Source: Candidatus Xenobia bacterium
GTDB lineage: Bacteria; Vulcanimicrobiota; Xenobia; Xenobiales; QWHO01
Assembly: GCA_045863235.1 (NCBI GenBank)
Contig: BTUM01000081.1
Coordinates: 1-35,919 of the forward strand
Length of the DNA: 35,919 bases
Direction: 5' to 3'
In this document: positions 14,059-35,919 of the stretch, piece by piece
Numbering within the stretch: position 1 is the stretch's first letter
Layout of the letters: every line of letters begins with the position of its first letter
Notes under the pieces: generated by a model
Told to the model about the DNA's origin: nothing
Databases searched by the model: none
What the model saw: only the letters and a program-made list of their open reading frames with translations
Position numbers and translations under genes: made by a program

Positions 14059-14304
14059 GCCCTCGGCAGGCGACCCGACCCCCGAGTGCGGACGTGCCCC
14101 AGGTTTCGTCCTGGCCCCTCGGCAGGCGACCCGACCCTCGAGTGCGGACGTGTCCCAGGTTTCGTCTGGCCCCTCGGCAGGCGACCCGACCCCCGAGTGC
14201 GGACGTGCCCCAGGTTTCGTCCTGGCCCCTCGGCAGGCGACCCGACCCCCGAGTGCGGACGTGCCCAGGTTTCGTCCTGGCCCCTCGGCAGGCGACCCGA
14301 CCCT
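14059..14304. repeat. Intergenic tandem array, 4 units of 55-56 bp plus a partial fifth, each with two hairpins
   Basis: Units start 14061, 14117, 14172, 14228, 14283; CTCGG..CCGAG and CCAGG-TTTCGT-CCTGG stems. Confidence 0.95.
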
Positions 14305-27889: not shown

Positions 27890-27940
27890 CCGGTAGACCG
27901 CTCACCCGCCCGACCCCAGGTATGACATCCGGCAGTTTGC

Positions 27941-29218
27941 TCACTGAGGTCGAGATCGCCGACTCAGACGGATCCCCCCCACGGCCAGGTAACCCAGGCC
28001 CTCTGAGATTGCGGCGGAGGGCCCGGCCTGTTGCGCGATCGCTTGCACCTGACGCAGCTCGCGGAAGTGCTCCTCGGCTCCCTCCTCAAAGCGCAGAGCC
28101 GAGTCGGGACGGGGTTTGTTGTCTTGCTCGAGCCTCTCCCAGTTGACGTAACCCTGGCCCAGGCTGATCTCCATGTCTTGCGCGTCCCGCAGCATCAGCC
28201 ATTCATAGCTCTGATGCAGCTCTTTGGCAAAGCCCAATCGCTCCCCGTTCAGAGCCCTGAGGGCTTCGGGGCCGGGCATCACGCGCTCTAAGAAGAGCTG
28301 CGCCAGCTCGGGATTGAACTGGCCCTTCGCCGTCAGCTCCTCCAAACCGGCCCGGGCCTGCTCGTAGTCCAGGCCCAATCGCCAGGGGCGACGCTGGGTG
28401 AGGGCGTCCCAGGTGTCGGCCAGGCCCATGACCTGAGCGGTCAGCGGAATGTCGTGGCCCTTGAGCCCGTCGGGATAGCCCTGACCGTCCCAGCGCTCGT
28501 GATGGTGGCGGACGATCTCGCGCACCCCGTCCTGGCGCGCTCCCTGCCCCATGGCGCTGAAGAGCTTCTCCACCACGGGGTCGCCGCCGTCCGGAAAGCG
28601 GTTGGTACGGACCAGGACGTGACGGGCGATCTCGCGCGCCTGCTCTTCGGAGAGCGGGCCCCGGGCGTCCAGAGCCTGGCTGGAAACGCTCACCTTGCCC
28701 AGGTCGAACATGTCTCCGGCTTCGGTCAGCGCTTTCTTCTCGTCTTCGAGCAGAGCGTAGCGGGTGCCGTCCAGGGCGGTGGCAAACCGGTTGGCGACCT
28801 GGGAGGCCACCTTCATGTGCAGCTCGGTGTAGCCGTTCTCGAGATGGTGGAGAGCATAGCGCCGGTCGACGTAGGCGCTGTTCGAGTCGTTCGGGAAGCG
28901 AAGCTCGGTGGGGAGGCAGGTCTCCCGGGCTCCGTGCCAGACTCCCCCCGAGAGCTGAGCGGCGCGCTCGGGCACGATGGAGGCCAGGAAGCGCTCGTGA
29001 GGGCTGTCGAGCAGAGGGGTCGGTGCGGCCTCGGGCTCCGGAGCGGGCGCTTCCAGCGGCACCGAAGCCGTTGGTATCGTCGAGGCCGAGGACGCTTTGC
29101 GCGGGGCTGAAAGGAAGACGGCGTCCTGCTGTTCGGGAACGGCTGAATCGAGGTTTGCGCCGGCCCGAACGGGCAGGCTGGGAGCCAGGCTCTCACTCCC
29201 GGAGATCGGTCGCAGCAC
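27941..29218 (-). CDS. HD-GYP domain protein with altered HD dyad
   Basis: HHHERWDGQGYPDGLKGHDIP, LADTWDALT..RPW, GQFNP; MFDLGK in place of LHDIGK; start approximate. Confidence 0.8.
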   Translation of the reverse strand: MLRPISGSESLAPSLPVRAGANLDSAVPEQQDAVFLSAPRKASSASTIPTASVPLEAPAPEPEAAPTPLLDSPHERFLASIVPERAAQLSGGVWHGARETCLPTELRFPNDSNSAYVDRRYALHHLENGYTELHMKVASQVANRFATALDGTRYALLEDEKKALTEAGDMFDLGKVSVSSQALDARGPLSEEQAREIARHVLVRTNRFPDGGDPVVEKLFSAMGQGARQDGVREIVRHHHERWDGQGYPDGLKGHDIPLTAQVMGLADTWDALTQRRPWRLGLDYEQARAGLEELTAKGQFNPELAQLFLERVMPGPEALRALNGERLGFAKELHQSYEWLMLRDAQDMEISLGQGYVNWERLEQDNKPRPDSALRFEEGAEEHFRELRQVQAIAQQAGPSAAISEGLGYLAVGGIRLSRRSRPQ

Positions 29219-30033: not shown

Positions 30034-31245
30034 ATGGACCTGACACCCATCGCCCCCACTGCCGGGGCCACCCAACGCATGGGCCTGGAGGTCGAGATGC
30101 TCGGCTTCGATGCCCAGACTTTCGCCCCGCTGGGCCTGCCCGAGGCGCGCCTGAGCCCCCAGAGCCTGCTGACCCGGATGCACGAGCTCTCTCCGGGCAG
30201 CCATCTCAAGGTCGATTCCCCCACCGGGGTGGTGGTCGGCCTGGAGCTGGCGGGCGGGAACTTCAGCCTGGAGCCGGGCGGGCAGGTGGAGTACGCAACC
30301 AGTCCCCACGCCACGCTCTCGGAGCTGCTCGAGGACCTGGTCGGGGGCTTGCGCTTGCTGGAGGAGGCGGCCGCGGGGCAGGCGGTGTTCCTCGACCACG
30401 GCACCAACCCGGTGGCCGACGCCGAGCTGCCTTTGCTGGTGCCCAAGCATCGCTACCAGATCTTGACGCGCTACTTCGCTTCTCAGCCCGGTGGGCGGGG
30501 GATCGACATGATGCGCTATTCGGCCACCTCCCAGCCCAACCTGGACATCCCCGACGGTTGGGCCGACGCCGTGCGTCTCACCCTCGCCCTGACGCCGGCG
30601 GCTCGAGCGCTGTTCGCCAACTCGCGCTACTTCCACGGACGAAGGACCGGTCCGGGCTCGGAGCGACAGCGCATCTGGGCGGCCATCGACGCGAGCCGCA
30701 CGGGGATCCCTCCCATCGCCCAGGCCCCCGACCTGGCCCAAGCCTACGCCGAGTGGGCCGAGAACGCCTACGTCTTCCTGGTGGGGGACCTCCCGCTCGA
30801 GGAGCAGCCCCTCTATGGCGAGCTGCGCTTCAAGGATTGGGCCTCTGAGGGCTACCGGGGCACCCATCCCGGCGGTGCCGACTGGGAGACGCACCTGGCC
30901 ACCCTCTTTCCCGATCTCCGCCTGCGTCGCTTTCTGGAGATTCGCATGGTGGACGCCCAGACCTATGAGCACGCGCTGGCCCCGATGGCCTTCTGGGCTA
31001 CCGTGCTGCAGCAGGCCGAGCACCGCGAGCGGGTCTGGCGGCACGTTCAGGACGAGCCGATCAAGCTTCTCGAGCTGGCCGCCGAGCTGGCCCAGGACGA
31101 TCTGGCCAGCAAGAGCCTGCGGGCCTACCTGCGCTGGGTAGAGGCCCGCGAGCAGCTTGACTACCCTGCAGCCGGGCTCGATTTCGTGAAGGCGACGGCC
31201 ACTCGCTCTCCGGCCAGCCAGCTGCTTAGCGTCGTGGGAGTTTGA
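30034..31245 (+). CDS. gshA: Glutamate--cysteine ligase (GCS2 family, GshA/EgtA-like)
   Basis: GLEVE, FSLEPGGQVEYATSP, VPKHRY, DMMR, ALFANS, HLATLFPDLRLRRFLEIRMVDA. Confidence 0.85.
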   Translation: MDLTPIAPTAGATQRMGLEVEMLGFDAQTFAPLGLPEARLSPQSLLTRMHELSPGSHLKVDSPTGVVVGLELAGGNFSLEPGGQVEYATSPHATLSELLEDLVGGLRLLEEAAAGQAVFLDHGTNPVADAELPLLVPKHRYQILTRYFASQPGGRGIDMMRYSATSQPNLDIPDGWADAVRLTLALTPAARALFANSRYFHGRRTGPGSERQRIWAAIDASRTGIPPIAQAPDLAQAYAEWAENAYVFLVGDLPLEEQPLYGELRFKDWASEGYRGTHPGGADWETHLATLFPDLRLRRFLEIRMVDAQTYEHALAPMAFWATVLQQAEHRERVWRHVQDEPIKLLELAAELAQDDLASKSLRAYLRWVEAREQLDYPAAGLDFVKATATRSPASQLLSVVGV

Positions 31246-33031
31246 CCGGAATTTGGAGGGGTCGGAAGCGAGCCTGGAAGAAGCGCAGGGAGGCCGGCTC
31301 GTAGGTCATCTCCAGCCCCCCGATTAAGGCGCGCCGCTGCCAGACTCGCTCCACCCCGTCCGCCACCAGGTCCATGTGCGAGTAGGTGTACACCCTCCGG
31401 GGGATGGTCAGGCGCACCAGCTCGAGCGGGGAGTCGTGGTTGTGGCCGGTTGCCTGGTCGCGCCCGGCCGAGACCAGACCGCGCTCCATCGAGCGCACCC
31501 CTGACTCGAGATAGAGCTCGGCCGCCAGCCGCTGGGCCGGGAACTCTTCCTGGGGCAAGTGGCTGAGAAACTCGCGGGCATTGAGGAATACCGCATGCCC
31601 ACCCACCGGATGGACGATGGGGATGCCGCGCTCGGAGAGCAGCCGGCCCAGGTACTGAACCTGCTCCACCCGGTTGCGCAGGTAGTCGAAGTCGGTCATC
31701 TCGTAGGCGCCCAGGGCCATGGCCTTGAGATCGCGAGCGCCCACTCCGCCGTGGCTGATGTAGACCGAGGCCAGGCGCCGGGCGCGCTCGAAGACGTCCG
31801 CGTCGTTCGTGGCCAGGACGCCCCCGATGTTGACCAGCATGTCCTTCTTGGCCGAGATGGTGCACCCGTCCCCCAGGCTCATCAGCTGGCGGATGATCTC
31901 GCGAATGCTCAGATCCTGGCAGCCCGGCTCTCGGGTCTTGATGAAGTAGGCGTTCTCGGCCACCCGGGTGGCGTCGAAGTAGAGCGGGATGCGGTAGTAG
32001 CGGGCGATCTCGGAGACGCGCCGGGAAGCCGCCAGGCTGATCGGCTGACCGCCCGCCATGTTGACGTTGGTCTCCAGGCAGATGTAGGCGATCCGCTCGG
32101 GGCCCTGCTCGGTGATCAGGCGCTCGAGCCGGTCGGGATCGAGGTCTCCCTTGAAGGGACACTGGCTGTTCGGGTCGGTGGCTTCCGAGCGGATCAGATC
32201 CACGAAGATTCCCCCCGCCCGCTCCTGATGCTCGCGGGTGGTGGTGAAGTAGAGGTTGTTGATGACCATCTGGCCCGGCCGGATCAGGGTGCGCGACAGG
32301 ATGTGCTCCACCGCTCGGCCCTGATGGGCGGGCAGCATGAAGCGGAAGCCGAGCACGTCCTGGATGGCCCGCTCGAGGTCCTCCCAGGCCTCGGTCCGGC
32401 CTTCCGCTTCGCGCGAGGCGACCATACCCGCCCACTGCTCGCTGGACATGGCGTTGGTGCCCGAGTCGGTCAAGAGGTCGATATAGACCTCGCGCGAGGG
32501 GATCAGGAAGGTGTTGTAGCCCGCCTCCTCGAGCACCCGGGCGCGGCGGTCGCGATCGTTGAGGGCCATGGTTTCGACCACCCGATGGACGAAGGGCTCG
32601 GGCCGAGGCCGCCCGCCAGCTCCGAGCGGCACCTCTCCGCGCACCACCAGCTCGCAGCGGGGCTGGAACCGCTCGCCCTGGACCTGGAAGGGGCGCAGCC
32701 CCTTCCAGTGGGACAGCTCGGCCAGGGCGTCCAGCGCATAGACCAGCTGCATCTCGGTGTAGACGCGCCGGGGCACGCGCAGCAGCAAGAGATCGGGTGC
32801 CTCCTCGGGGAAGAAGCTGCCGGGAATGGCCGCCCGCACTCCCGAGGAGAGATAGAGGGCGGCCGCCAGGGCAGCCGCCCGGCTCCCCCGGCCCTTGAGC
32901 ATGCGCTCGGCCTCCAGGGCCACTCCGTCCGTGCCGGCCGAGGTCTGCACCGGCAGTCCCCGCTCATGCAGCTCCCGCACCAAGAAGTCGAGCTTGCGGC
33001 GCCGGAAGTGGTGGTAGCCCAGGTCGCTCAT
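31226..33031 (-). CDS. tpl: C-terminal part of a degenerate TPL fold fused to a full PLP-binding tyrosine phenol-lyase domain (~31226-32600)
   Basis: IDLLTDSGT, YFTTTR, NMAGGQP, DATR, SAKKD, GVRSMERG, RLTIPRRVYT, LRFF (TPL-type); GDEAYAGS motif absent. Confidence 0.8.
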   Translation of the reverse strand: MSDLGYHHFRRRKLDFLVRELHERGLPVQTSAGTDGVALEAERMLKGRGSRAAALAAALYLSSGVRAAIPGSFFPEEAPDLLLLRVPRRVYTEMQLVYALDALAELSHWKGLRPFQVQGERFQPRCELVVRGEVPLGAGGRPRPEPFVHRVVETMALNDRDRRARVLEEAGYNTFLIPSREVYIDLLTDSGTNAMSSEQWAGMVASREAEGRTEAWEDLERAIQDVLGFRFMLPAHQGRAVEHILSRTLIRPGQMVINNLYFTTTREHQERAGGIFVDLIRSEATDPNSQCPFKGDLDPDRLERLITEQGPERIAYICLETNVNMAGGQPISLAASRRVSEIARYYRIPLYFDATRVAENAYFIKTREPGCQDLSIREIIRQLMSLGDGCTISAKKDMLVNIGGVLATNDADVFERARRLASVYISHGGVGARDLKAMALGAYEMTDFDYLRNRVEQVQYLGRLLSERGIPIVHPVGGHAVFLNAREFLSHLPQEEFPAQRLAAELYLESGVRSMERGLVSAGRDQATGHNHDSPLELVRLTIPRRVYTYSHMDLVADGVERVWQRRALIGGLEMTYEPASLRFFQARFRPLQIPVKLPRR

Positions 33032-33908
33032 CTCGCGCCATGGCCTGCAGATCCCGGCCGGCCTGCCCGCCGTAAGTGTGCAGCCCCTCGAAGACGACCA
33101 CCAGGCTGCGCAGCGGCTCGAGGTGGTCGACCTGGCGACCGGCGATGAGGCCGCCGGTCTGGCAGAACGCGTCCTCTCGGCCCGAGAGGTAGACCAGGTC
33201 AGCCAGGGAGGTGTAGCTCCGCATCAACCGCTCCAGGCTCTCGGAGAGCTCCTCCATCTCGCGCAGGTAGTAGCAGGCGCTGCCGAGGCGGGTGGCGTCC
33301 AGGACCAGTGGGACGGCTCGCGAGCGACACCTCTGCGCCACCTGCTCGAGGTTGGACAAGGACAGCACGCTGCCCCCCAGCAGCGGAACCGAGGCCGTGG
33401 CCACCACCGCGGCCACCTCTTCGGTCGCCAGGGCGCGCTCCAGGCCGGCCAGGTCGAAGTCTCCCCCGAAGAGACCGGCGGACTGGCCGCACAGGTCGAG
33501 CACCGTGCCGCCCTGGTCGGTGGCCAGCGGCCTCAGCGTGGCCAGGCTCTTGTTGGTCAACACCACCTGACCGGGACGCATCAGGATTCTCAGCAAGAGG
33601 TTTTCGGCCCCACGCCCCGAGTGGGTGGGCACCACCCAGTCCAGGCCCAGTTGCTCGCGCACCGCTGCTTCCAGAGCATAGAAGCTCTCGCTGCCGGCAT
33701 AGGCCTCGTCGCCCATGGCCAGGGCCGCCCACTGCCGGTCGCTCACCGCCGCCGGCGAGGCGGCCGAGCCCAGGTCGAGATAGACTGACTTGCGGGCCAG
33801 CCGGTGCACATTCCAGCCGGCGCCCTCCAGGGCCAGGTGGCGTTGCTCGGGGCTGGGCTGGTGGATTTTTTCCACCATCTTGACGCGATAGGGCTCGGCG
33901 TAGTGCAT
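32964..33908 (-). CDS. N-terminal part of a degenerate TPL fold lacking the PLP lysine; frameshifts into the downstream ORF at ~33035
   Basis: AEPYRVKMVE, GDEAYAGSESFY, PTHSGRGAENLL, SGRED (for SGKKD), EGLHTYGGQAGRDLQAMA; GGAGG SD. Confidence 0.8.
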   Translation of the reverse strand: MHYAEPYRVKMVEKIHQPSPEQRHLALEGAGWNVHRLARKSVYLDLGSAASPAAVSDRQWAALAMGDEAYAGSESFYALEAAVREQLGLDWVVPTHSGRGAENLLLRILMRPGQVVLTNKSLATLRPLATDQGGTVLDLCGQSAGLFGGDFDLAGLERALATEEVAAVVATASVPLLGGSVLSLSNLEQVAQRCRSRAVPLVLDATRLGSACYYLREMEELSESLERLMRSYTSLADLVYLSGREDAFCQTGGLIAGRQVDHLEPLRSLVVVFEGLHTYGGQAGRDLQAMARDERPGLPPLPAPQARLLGAGAA

Positions 33909-33960
33909 GGCAAGGTCCTCCGTGGTGAGGCCATTCTAGGCGGGGTCCGGAGGGTGGAAA

Positions 33961-35587: not shown

Positions 35588-35596
35588 GCCTTCGGT

Positions 35597-35919
35597 CGTC
35601 CCGACGGGGTGTGCATGGAGTTGCCCGCGCATGTGCCTGCATGTCCGTGCACATCGGGGGCGGCCCGATGGAAATGTGCATGGAGGTGCCCGCGCATGTG
35701 CCTGCATGTCCGTGCACATCGGTCGGCCCGACGGGAATGTGCCTGGAGTTGCCGGCGCATGTGCCTGCATGTTCGTGCACATGGGGCGTCCCGATGGGAG
35801 TGTGCATGGAGTTGCCGGCGCATGTGCCTGCATGTCCGTGCACATCGGGCGGCCCGACGGGGAATGTGCATGGAGTTGCCGGCGCATGTGCCTGCATGTC
35901 CGTGCACATCGGGCGGCCC
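35597..35919. repeat. Tandem array of 63-64-bp palindromic units (5 or more, runs off the window end)
   Basis: Units start 35601, 35665, 35728, 35791, 35854; core TGTGCATGGAGTTGCCGGCGCATGTGCCTGCATGTCCGTGCACA. Confidence 0.95.

Follow-up and report, generated by a model that had tools for sequence, protein, structure and literature searches.

A two-domain tyrosine phenol-lyase-like gene in a Xenobia contig

We analyzed a 35,919-nucleotide stretch of DNA from Candidatus Xenobia bacterium (contig BTUM01000081.1 of GenBank assembly GCA_045863235.1; termed the window throughout). A region on its minus strand (Table 1) encodes two consecutive Beta_elim_lyase domains (Pfam PF01212), as confirmed by domain search, and both resemble tyrosine phenol-lyase (TPL), an enzyme dependent on pyridoxal 5′-phosphate (PLP). 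Passages of a published account of TPL name Lys257, the general acid Tyr71, the base Arg381 and Thr124, and place the active site between a subunit and its neighbor's large domain (PMC10170061). In the fused protein, these two contributions are divided: domain 1 keeps the parts that a neighboring subunit donates, while domain 2 keeps those of the subunit itself. We consider it likely that the main family of such proteins represents a single-chain pseudo-dimeric TPL with one composite site per chain.

Every motif quoted in the initial annotation of this DNA was found on the minus strand (Table 1). Numbered as in Citrobacter freundii TPL, via a PDB alignment and a gap-free TPL, domain 2 of the window carries T49, S51, G52, R100, F123, T124, N185, D214, R217, K257, N262, M379, R381, R404, F448 and F449. 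Its PDB alignment with TPL residues 5–453 contains a single 3-residue gap, located exactly in the EGxxxYGG loop. The linker is short throughout the family, with a median of 10 residues beyond two head-to-tail TPLs and 4–16 in 178 of 180 members.

Table 1 Features of the fused gene region in the window (residues in C. freundii TPL numbering).
Feature	Position	Strand	Remark
Putative fused two-domain TPL pseudo-dimer gene	31226..33908	-	898 aa in the intact same-genus relative G003; frameshifted here
Shine-Dalgarno-like GGAGG	33917..33921	-	8 nt upstream of the ATG at 33908
Domain 1, TPL-fold donor half	32654..33908	-	Glu69, Tyr71, Tyr291 kept; PLP lysine changed to Glu; frameshift inside
LGSAAS, domain 1	33756-33773	-	motif located in sequence
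GDEAYAGS loop (TPL 67-74), domain 1	33690..33713	-	general acid Tyr71 and K+-site Glu69, predicted to be donated to the domain-2 site
SLATLR, domain 1	33531-33548	-	motif located in sequence
VPLLGG, domain 1	33372-33389	-	motif located in sequence
SGRED, dead PLP-lysine motif, domain 1	33171..33185	-	K256R, K257E
VVVFEGLHTYGG loop (TPL 282-293), domain 1	33066..33101	-	Tyr291; second donated loop
11-bp deletion site splitting the gene	33036/33037	.	relative to G003; 4/4 runs carry the 11 bases
RAAIPG, domain 1	32819-32836	-	motif located in sequence
Interdomain linker, short	32603..32653	-	from sequence
Domain 2, PLP-binding catalytic half (predicted)	31226..32602	-	Tyr71 changed to Glu; Tyr291 loop 3 residues shorter
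LLTDSGT, domain 2	32456-32476	-	motif located in sequence
SREAEGRT, degenerate Tyr71 loop, domain 2	32393..32416	-	faces the dead domain-1 site; equivalent residues in the modeled interface
YFTTTR, domain 2	32234-32251	-	motif located in sequence
VNMAGG, domain 2	32048-32065	-	motif located in sequence
SAKKD, domain 2	31841..31855	-	PLP Schiff-base lysine (TPL Lys257); only complete site
VYISHGG, domain 2	31745-31765	-	motif located in sequence
RSMERG, domain 2	31478-31495	-	motif located in sequence
VRLTIPRR, domain 2	31394-31417	-	motif located in sequence
LRFF, domain 2	31277-31288	-	motif located in sequence

An 11-bp deletion splits the window copy

The initial annotation had treated the region as one ~900-aa open reading frame (ORF), a reading we rejected for the window: an 11-bp deletion shifts the frame, so that the stretch holds one ORF of 314 aa (33908-32964) and, in another frame, one of 601 aa (33031-31226). 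In G003, the gene is intact as one 898-aa ORF with 97–98% protein identity to the window. Furthermore, contigs from all four sequencing runs covering the region (4 studies) contain the 11 bases, and one such contig shows only 4 other letter differences from the window over ~1,140 bases. Given the intact relative and the agreement of the four runs, the break either was introduced during assembly or is a lesion of very recent date; most likely, the window copy is broken as written by an assembly error. Contigs over the gene also came from one RNA-library run, which is not evidence of transcription. A programmed frameshift or a genuine two-gene form was likewise rejected, since the ATG of the second ORF lacks a Shine-Dalgarno-like site and the 11 bases are held in frame by G003 and the four runs. 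All downstream analyses are based on the intact G003 protein (P0123).

Across 881 codons, the window and G003 differ synonymously at 99 codons and non-synonymously at 13, in similar proportion in both domains and before and after the break.

Reciprocal residue pattern in the main family

The initial annotation had suggested a search for ~900-aa proteins with two Beta_elim_lyase domains, and this yielded 188 fused homologues, 180 of which show the reciprocal pattern and constitute the main family. Searching proteins of 551–2000 aa with the first ORF gave 161 hits; the best 120 of these (761–966 aa) were examined and all contained two TPL-like domains. Domain 2 as query against proteins of 806–2300 aa gave 869 hits, with 59 new proteins among the 120 listed. 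A genome scan retained 80 loci, including 8 fused genes from Myxococcota-type Deltaproteobacteria, Nitrospiraceae, Gemmatimonadota, Planctomycetota, Eisenbacteria and Acidobacteria; source names of fused proteins further include Elusimicrobia, Schekmanbacteria and others. Within the window's genus, two of five genomes carry the fusion and a third carries a single TPL. For alignment, the 188 fused proteins were split into domains and combined with 72 single TPLs and 17 tryptophanase-type proteins.

In the main family (n = 180), the first donated loop is kept in domain 1 and largely lost from domain 2 (domain 1 vs domain 2: G67 179 vs 12; E69 178 vs 71; Y71 179 vs 0), and so is the second (L288 179 vs 0; Y291 180 vs 0; G296 180 vs 14). 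The sole domain 1 without Tyr71 belongs to an N-terminally truncated protein. Same-subunit residues show the opposite distribution: S51 1 vs 180, F123 0 vs 180, T124 1 vs 180, N185 1 vs 180, K257 1 vs 180, R381 12 vs 179, R404 0 vs 179 and F448 5 vs 178. In domain 2, T49, S51, R100, F123, N185, D214, R217, K257 and R404 were each found in 179–180 of 180 members, and T124, M379, R381, F448 and F449 in 178–180. Both domains retain G52 and D214, the latter in 168 of 180 domain 1s. Passages on E. coli tryptophanase describe Tyr74 and Tyr307 as binding the PLP phosphate of the neighboring subunit (PMC2770544); these residues would correspond to TPL Tyr71 and Tyr291.

The pattern was unchanged among 54 representatives with less than 70% identity (domain 1 vs domain 2: Tyr71 and Tyr291 each 54/54 vs 0/54; Lys257 0/54 vs 54/54). 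Among the 59 new proteins from the domain-2 query, 57 show it too, so that it does not stem from the use of domain-1 motifs as queries. The 72 single TPLs have 164 positions with a conservation of 95% or more; domain 2 keeps 94 of these much better than domain 1, and the reverse holds for 14. Eleven of these 14 lie in loops 66–76 and 283–297 (Fisher p 3.5e-11 for the 54 representatives, a value inflated by relatedness), which places the reciprocal pattern far beyond chance; none of the 21 same-subunit site residues is among the 14.

Members share on average 37% identity in domain 1 and 59% in domain 2, compared with 66% among single TPLs. Domain 1 thus diverges fast, yet its donated loops are near-invariant; in most domain 1s, residues 123–124 and the 389–397 loop are deleted. 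Covariation between the domains was dominated by a split into two subgroups, and with an effective 97 sequences for 853 columns the alignment was too shallow for this analysis. Taken together, the non-random, reciprocal loss postulated in the initial annotation is borne out in the 180-member main family. Its further argument, that reciprocal loss reflects selection rather than decay, is not supported in this form: the kept halves are under purifying selection, but the loss itself is equally expected from neutral decay. Reciprocal loss is therefore no evidence of selection for the asymmetry itself.

With a domain-1 profile, no stand-alone domain-1 gene family was found among proteins of 228–791 aa (best 120 of 6,828 hits; 8,000 candidates scored). 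These 120 comprised 10 domain-1-type pieces, all from contigs of 3.2 kb or less, followed by 110/110 intact TPLs; the only ambiguous stand-alone candidate, P0184 (411 aa), is one sequence on a 1.9-kb contig. Adjacent two-gene loci were rejected as split forms, being pairs of TPL and tryptophanase with intact motifs. It is extremely improbable that the region is a duplicated gene decaying at random, or a pair of separate neighbors, with no functional fusion. The two reading frames of the window copy would fit such an origin, whereas the intact 898-aa gene in G003, the 11 bases in all four runs, the 188 fused homologues, the strong synonymous bias and the paucity of stand-alone domain-1 pieces speak against it; for the family, it is already refuted by the reciprocal-pattern counts.

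Structural models place the donated loops at the domain-2 site

AlphaFold2 modeled the whole 898-aa chain with a mean predicted local distance difference test score (pLDDT) of 93.9 and a predicted template modeling score (pTM) of 0.92. The closest PDB matches of this model were TPLs (Foldseek template modeling score 0.96–0.97 over the target, 54% identity). Modeled as separate chains together with PLP, the halves reached an interaction prediction score from aligned errors (ipSAE) of 0.89 (three runs), while the best control reached 0.00; the ipSAE mark applied is attained by 116 of 157 solved pairs and 2 of 215 mismatched pairs. The complex runs shared at least 91% of contacts, with a partner pLDDT of at least 89.

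Of the 25 most certain contact pairs, 24 could be mapped and 20 link donated loops of domain 1 to the domain-2 site. These most certain contacts include (domain 1–domain 2) Y71–T49, E69–G52, E69–N262 and A72–F36. In TPL, the K+ site is formed by Gly52 and Asn262 together with Glu69 of the neighbor. The AlphaFold check proposed in the initial annotation came out as predicted for Tyr71 of domain 1, which reaches the domain-2 site in the model, as does Glu69. The modeled interface also includes residues 283–289 and 293–298 of the second donated loop, and the degenerate loops of domain 2 face the dead site of domain 1.

Enzyme identity and genomic context

Judged by its residues, the fused protein would work like a TPL whose defining residues are kept but split over two domains, and not like a tryptophanase. 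The TPL-specific T124, R381 and F448 occur in domain 2 of 180, 179 and 178 of 180 members, respectively, and in 0 of 17 tryptophanase-type controls. Domain 2 of the window reads YFTTTR / MERG / LRFF and does not match the tryptophanase pocket HFDTTR / xEIG / LRHF. Tryptophanase equivalog cut-offs were also missed (TIGR02617, 634.3 < 825.8; NF053783, 682.6 < 750), and the NCBI label ‘tryptophanase’ on several members looks like a misannotation. A TPL subunit is a single ~456-aa chain holding both residue sets; here, these residues are split over two unequal domains, neither of them complete, and the fused protein consequently falls outside the definition of a TPL subunit.

Nine of ten fusion genomes hold one tryptophanase-type gene, and the window's genome is 97.6% complete. 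No neighbor genes were shared among the 8 loci scanned (71 ORFs; L019 was left out as a near-copy of L018). The absence of a pathway clue in the gene neighborhoods would accommodate a changed substrate, that is, a lyase performing beta-elimination at one site but mainly on another substrate than L-tyrosine (cysteine, an S-alkyl-cysteine or a substituted tyrosine). Two family-specific changes near the domain-2 site, G101A (100% of representatives) and A181E (96%), point in the same direction, and TPL itself also uses Ser, Cys and S-methyl-Cys, as stated in part of one source (PMC10170061). We nevertheless regard this as quite unlikely, as the pocket residues T124, M379, R381, F448 and F449 are kept in 178–180 of 180 members, Tyr71, required for C–C cleavage, is near-invariant in domain 1, and the fusion occupies the place of the TPL gene alongside a separate tryptophanase. 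The effect of losing Tyr71 varies between substrates (PMC3870968).

The window also contains an intact single-domain tryptophanase-type gene at ~19524-18151 on the minus strand (HFDTTR, EGYPTYGG, LRHF), 12 kb away from the fused gene and 44% identical to domain 2. In an Eisenbacteria genome (L075:6968-11060), the gene directly upstream of the fused TPL is of the tryptophanase type.

A probable single composite site per chain

The single composite active site proposed in the initial annotation is favored by the pattern in 180 homologues and by the structural model. Our interpretation is based on the observed residue pattern, its conservation, the co-inheritance of the two halves and purifying selection, together with a modeled interface. 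Domain 2 would bind one PLP on Lys257 and hold L-tyrosine through Thr49, Asn185, Arg217 and Arg404 (carboxylate) and Thr124, Arg381, Phe448 and Phe449 (phenol ring). Domain 1 would pack on it as the TPL neighbor subunit does, donating the acid Tyr71 for C–C bond cleavage, the K+ ligand Glu69, and Tyr291 as a phosphate ligand. Each chain would thus have one site converting tyrosine to phenol, pyruvate and ammonia. We infer from this arrangement the activity, the substrate, a stoichiometry of 1 PLP per chain, pairing within the chain, and an assembly of two chains equivalent to the TPL tetramer. The mirror site, without the lysine, the substrate residues, the lid loop and both donated tyrosines, would serve as scaffold.

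Several observations weigh against this interpretation. In the models, Tyr291 itself is not named in the interface, the ipSAE pass may be expected from the likeness to solved TPL dimers, so that its value lies in the geometry and is no proof of binding, and pairing within a chain is not separated from pairing between chains. If the deletion is real, the window copy is a pseudogene. One main-family protein (P0181) has Lys at position 257 of domain 1, and 8 of the 188 fused proteins deviate from the pattern, six with Lys257 in both domains and two with near-opposite polarity. Against the TPL model TIGR02618 (cut-off 720.7 bits), domain 2 alone (610.6) and domain 1 alone (263.3) both score below the cut-off, and the whole chain attains 868.9 bits only by summing two stretches; a control single TPL scores 763.6. 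The finding that none of the 10 fusion genomes searched with an intact TPL showed a separate TPL speaks for the interpretation, but most of these assemblies are incomplete. Finally, in a 71-member subgroup that includes the window protein, the dead site keeps G99 (69/71), R100 (69/71) and R256 (66/71), and domain 2 keeps E69 (69/71), leaving room for anion or ion binding.

The halves could instead pair between chains, with domain 1 completing domain 2 of another chain in a domain-swapped dimer or a larger oligomer. The linker, with its median of 10 extra residues, is short, and part of one source describes the TPL tetramer as held by N-terminal arms (PMC10170061); the fused chain could span either interface. 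On the other hand, the single-chain pTM of 0.92 implies one confident domain arrangement, through whichever of the two interfaces, and we judge pairing between chains to be unlikely.

For the dead site, the initial annotation had envisaged a regulatory or binding role. Adenylyl cyclase and degenerate ATP-binding cassette sites offer precedents for a second site turned allosteric or ligand-binding, and a retained or reshaped pocket of this kind could coexist with the same composite site. The retention of D214 in 168 of 180 domain 1s is in keeping with it, as are T216S, present in 94% of representatives, and the joint retention, in the 71-member subgroup, of R100, R256, E257, D298 and R410 in domain 1 and K11, E69 and R297 in domain 2. 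However, the other 109 members lack R100, D298 and R297 and have different residues instead, and the lid loop 389–397 is deleted in most domain 1s. Five changes are conserved specifically in domain 1 (I28L, T216S, T248A, V403L and M417L), but across the family the dead site has no conserved set of new residues that would identify it as a ligand pocket. The charged residues that remain could also represent interface salt bridges plugging the site. A family-wide role is accordingly unsupported, and we consider a retained pocket improbable. In the 71-member subgroup, whose dead site further keeps an acidic residue 257 and R297 of domain 2, the charged residues may either plug the site or serve in anion binding, and a regulatory role is therefore conceivable there.

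Origin of the fusion and exceptions

The composite-site enzyme most likely arose by duplication and fusion, followed by complementary decay that would have made the halves mutually dependent. Once one site was damaged, everything belonging to it, in either domain, would have been free to decay, while the components of the other site would stay under selection. Since decay after a first damage accounts for the pattern, no gain from asymmetry is needed. The subtrees of domain 1 and domain 2 mostly mirror each other, and domain 2 groups among TPLs. It forms one clade in one tree (support 0.92) and two groups in two other trees (approximately unbiased test, p 0.63); a single origin of the main family is thus neither demonstrated nor rejected. 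The grouping of all domain 1s may reflect long-branch attraction.

The eight exceptions restrict our claim to the main family. P0046, P0052, P0053, P0055, P0059 and P0062 carry Lys257 in both domains; four of them have Tyr71 in domain 2. In this group, the domain-2 pocket lacks R381 and is altered at T124, F448 or F449. This two-lysine subfamily, with source names including Sericytochromatia and Pantanalinema, is possibly a lyase for another substrate. In P0124 and P0125 (the latter labeled as a Chroococcales cyanobacterium), domain 1 keeps T49, S51, F123, N185, D214, R217, K257 and R404 but shows Y71F, Y291C and an altered pocket, while domain 2 keeps both tyrosines and carries N185T and R217H.

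These exceptions suggest repeated origins. It is conceivable, if unlikely, that the labor was split more than once and in both directions, and that the dead site of the 71-member subgroup is a conserved anion- or ligand-sensing regulatory pocket. If this were true, the main, opposite-polarity and two-lysine groups would constitute a natural series from a homodimeric PLP enzyme to a one-site regulated pseudo-dimer with new specificities.

Other features of the window

A gene of the glutamate-cysteine ligase family (GCS2) at 30034-31245 on the plus strand is convergent with the fused gene, overlapping its 3′ end by 20 bases; in G003, the two genes are ~1.2 kb apart. An HD-domain gene region at ~27900-29100 is unmatched in the syntenic G003 stretch, perhaps owing to a recent insertion or loss. 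At 35592-35919, a 63-bp tandem repeat (5.2 copies, 88% matches) extends beyond the end of the contig and lies upstream of a porin gene of the alginate-export family. Another tandem repeat lies at 14060-14303 (55 bp, 4.4 copies, 96% matches), and a long low-complexity ORF with a collagen-like repeat spans 23-2785 on the plus strand, with 29 copies of an 18-bp unit arrayed at 671-1197.

Relation to known enzymes and implications

The closest known system is TPL itself (EC 4.1.99.2; Citrobacter freundii, Erwinia herbicola; PDB 2ez1, 1tpl, 1c7g; TIGR02618). The fusion shares its fold and modeled catalytic-dimer interface, domain 2 carrying every catalytic and specificity residue of the subunit itself and domain 1 every neighbor-donated one. 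In TPL, four identical ~456-aa chains form a tetramer with four PLP sites, whereas the fusion is a ~900-aa chain of unequal copies with one complete site, each half being incomplete alone and below the family cut-off. With tryptophanase (EC 4.1.99.1), it shares PF01212, the two-subunit active site and matches to PRK13238, but differs by T124, R381 and F448 in domain 2, which are lacking in 17/17 tryptophanase-type controls.

The principle of a one-site pseudo-dimer has a precedent, by analogy, in serine palmitoyltransferase. Of its two subunits, LCB1 and LCB2, only LCB2 is known to bear the PLP lysine. Parts of the literature describe the eukaryotic form (SPTLC1/2) as a fold-type-I PLP enzyme with an active site built where two paralogous subunits meet, naming the lysine in SPTLC2 (PMC11307022), and report the subunits fused in one gene in most Emiliania huxleyi viruses (PMC5371807). 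Like these paralogous fold-type-I units, the two halves of the fusion are unequal, with Lys257 in 180/180 domain 2s vs 1/180 domain 1s and the donated loops in domain 1 only. Serine palmitoyltransferase, however, belongs to the alpha-oxoamine synthase subfamily with its own reaction, is mostly encoded by two genes and is ancient; the fusion is bacterial, no split form of it was found, and its halves are still recognizably TPL, making this an analogy and not a membership. In laboratory complementation between subunits of fold-type-I enzymes, with 1-aminocyclopropane-1-carboxylate (ACC) synthase and with aspartate aminotransferase hybrids, lysine-less and tyrosine-less subunits rebuild one site. 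There, the division was made by mutagenesis in separate chains, whereas in the fusion it is naturally fixed in one polypeptide. Our literature searches, which covered open-access papers, found no published description of a fused TPL.

The fusion would represent a natural and widespread transition from a homodimer to a single-chain one-site pseudo-dimer, in which kept and lost residues can be read against decades of work on the TPL mechanism. It offers a direct test of whether the two sites of TPL need each other, and of how complementary decay locks a fusion in place. As TPL serves the production of L-DOPA and tyrosine analogues, a single chain would allow donor and catalytic halves to be engineered separately. 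Finally, the family would add a predicted phenol-producing capacity, often labeled as tryptophanase, to many uncultured bacteria of sludge, soil and sediment.

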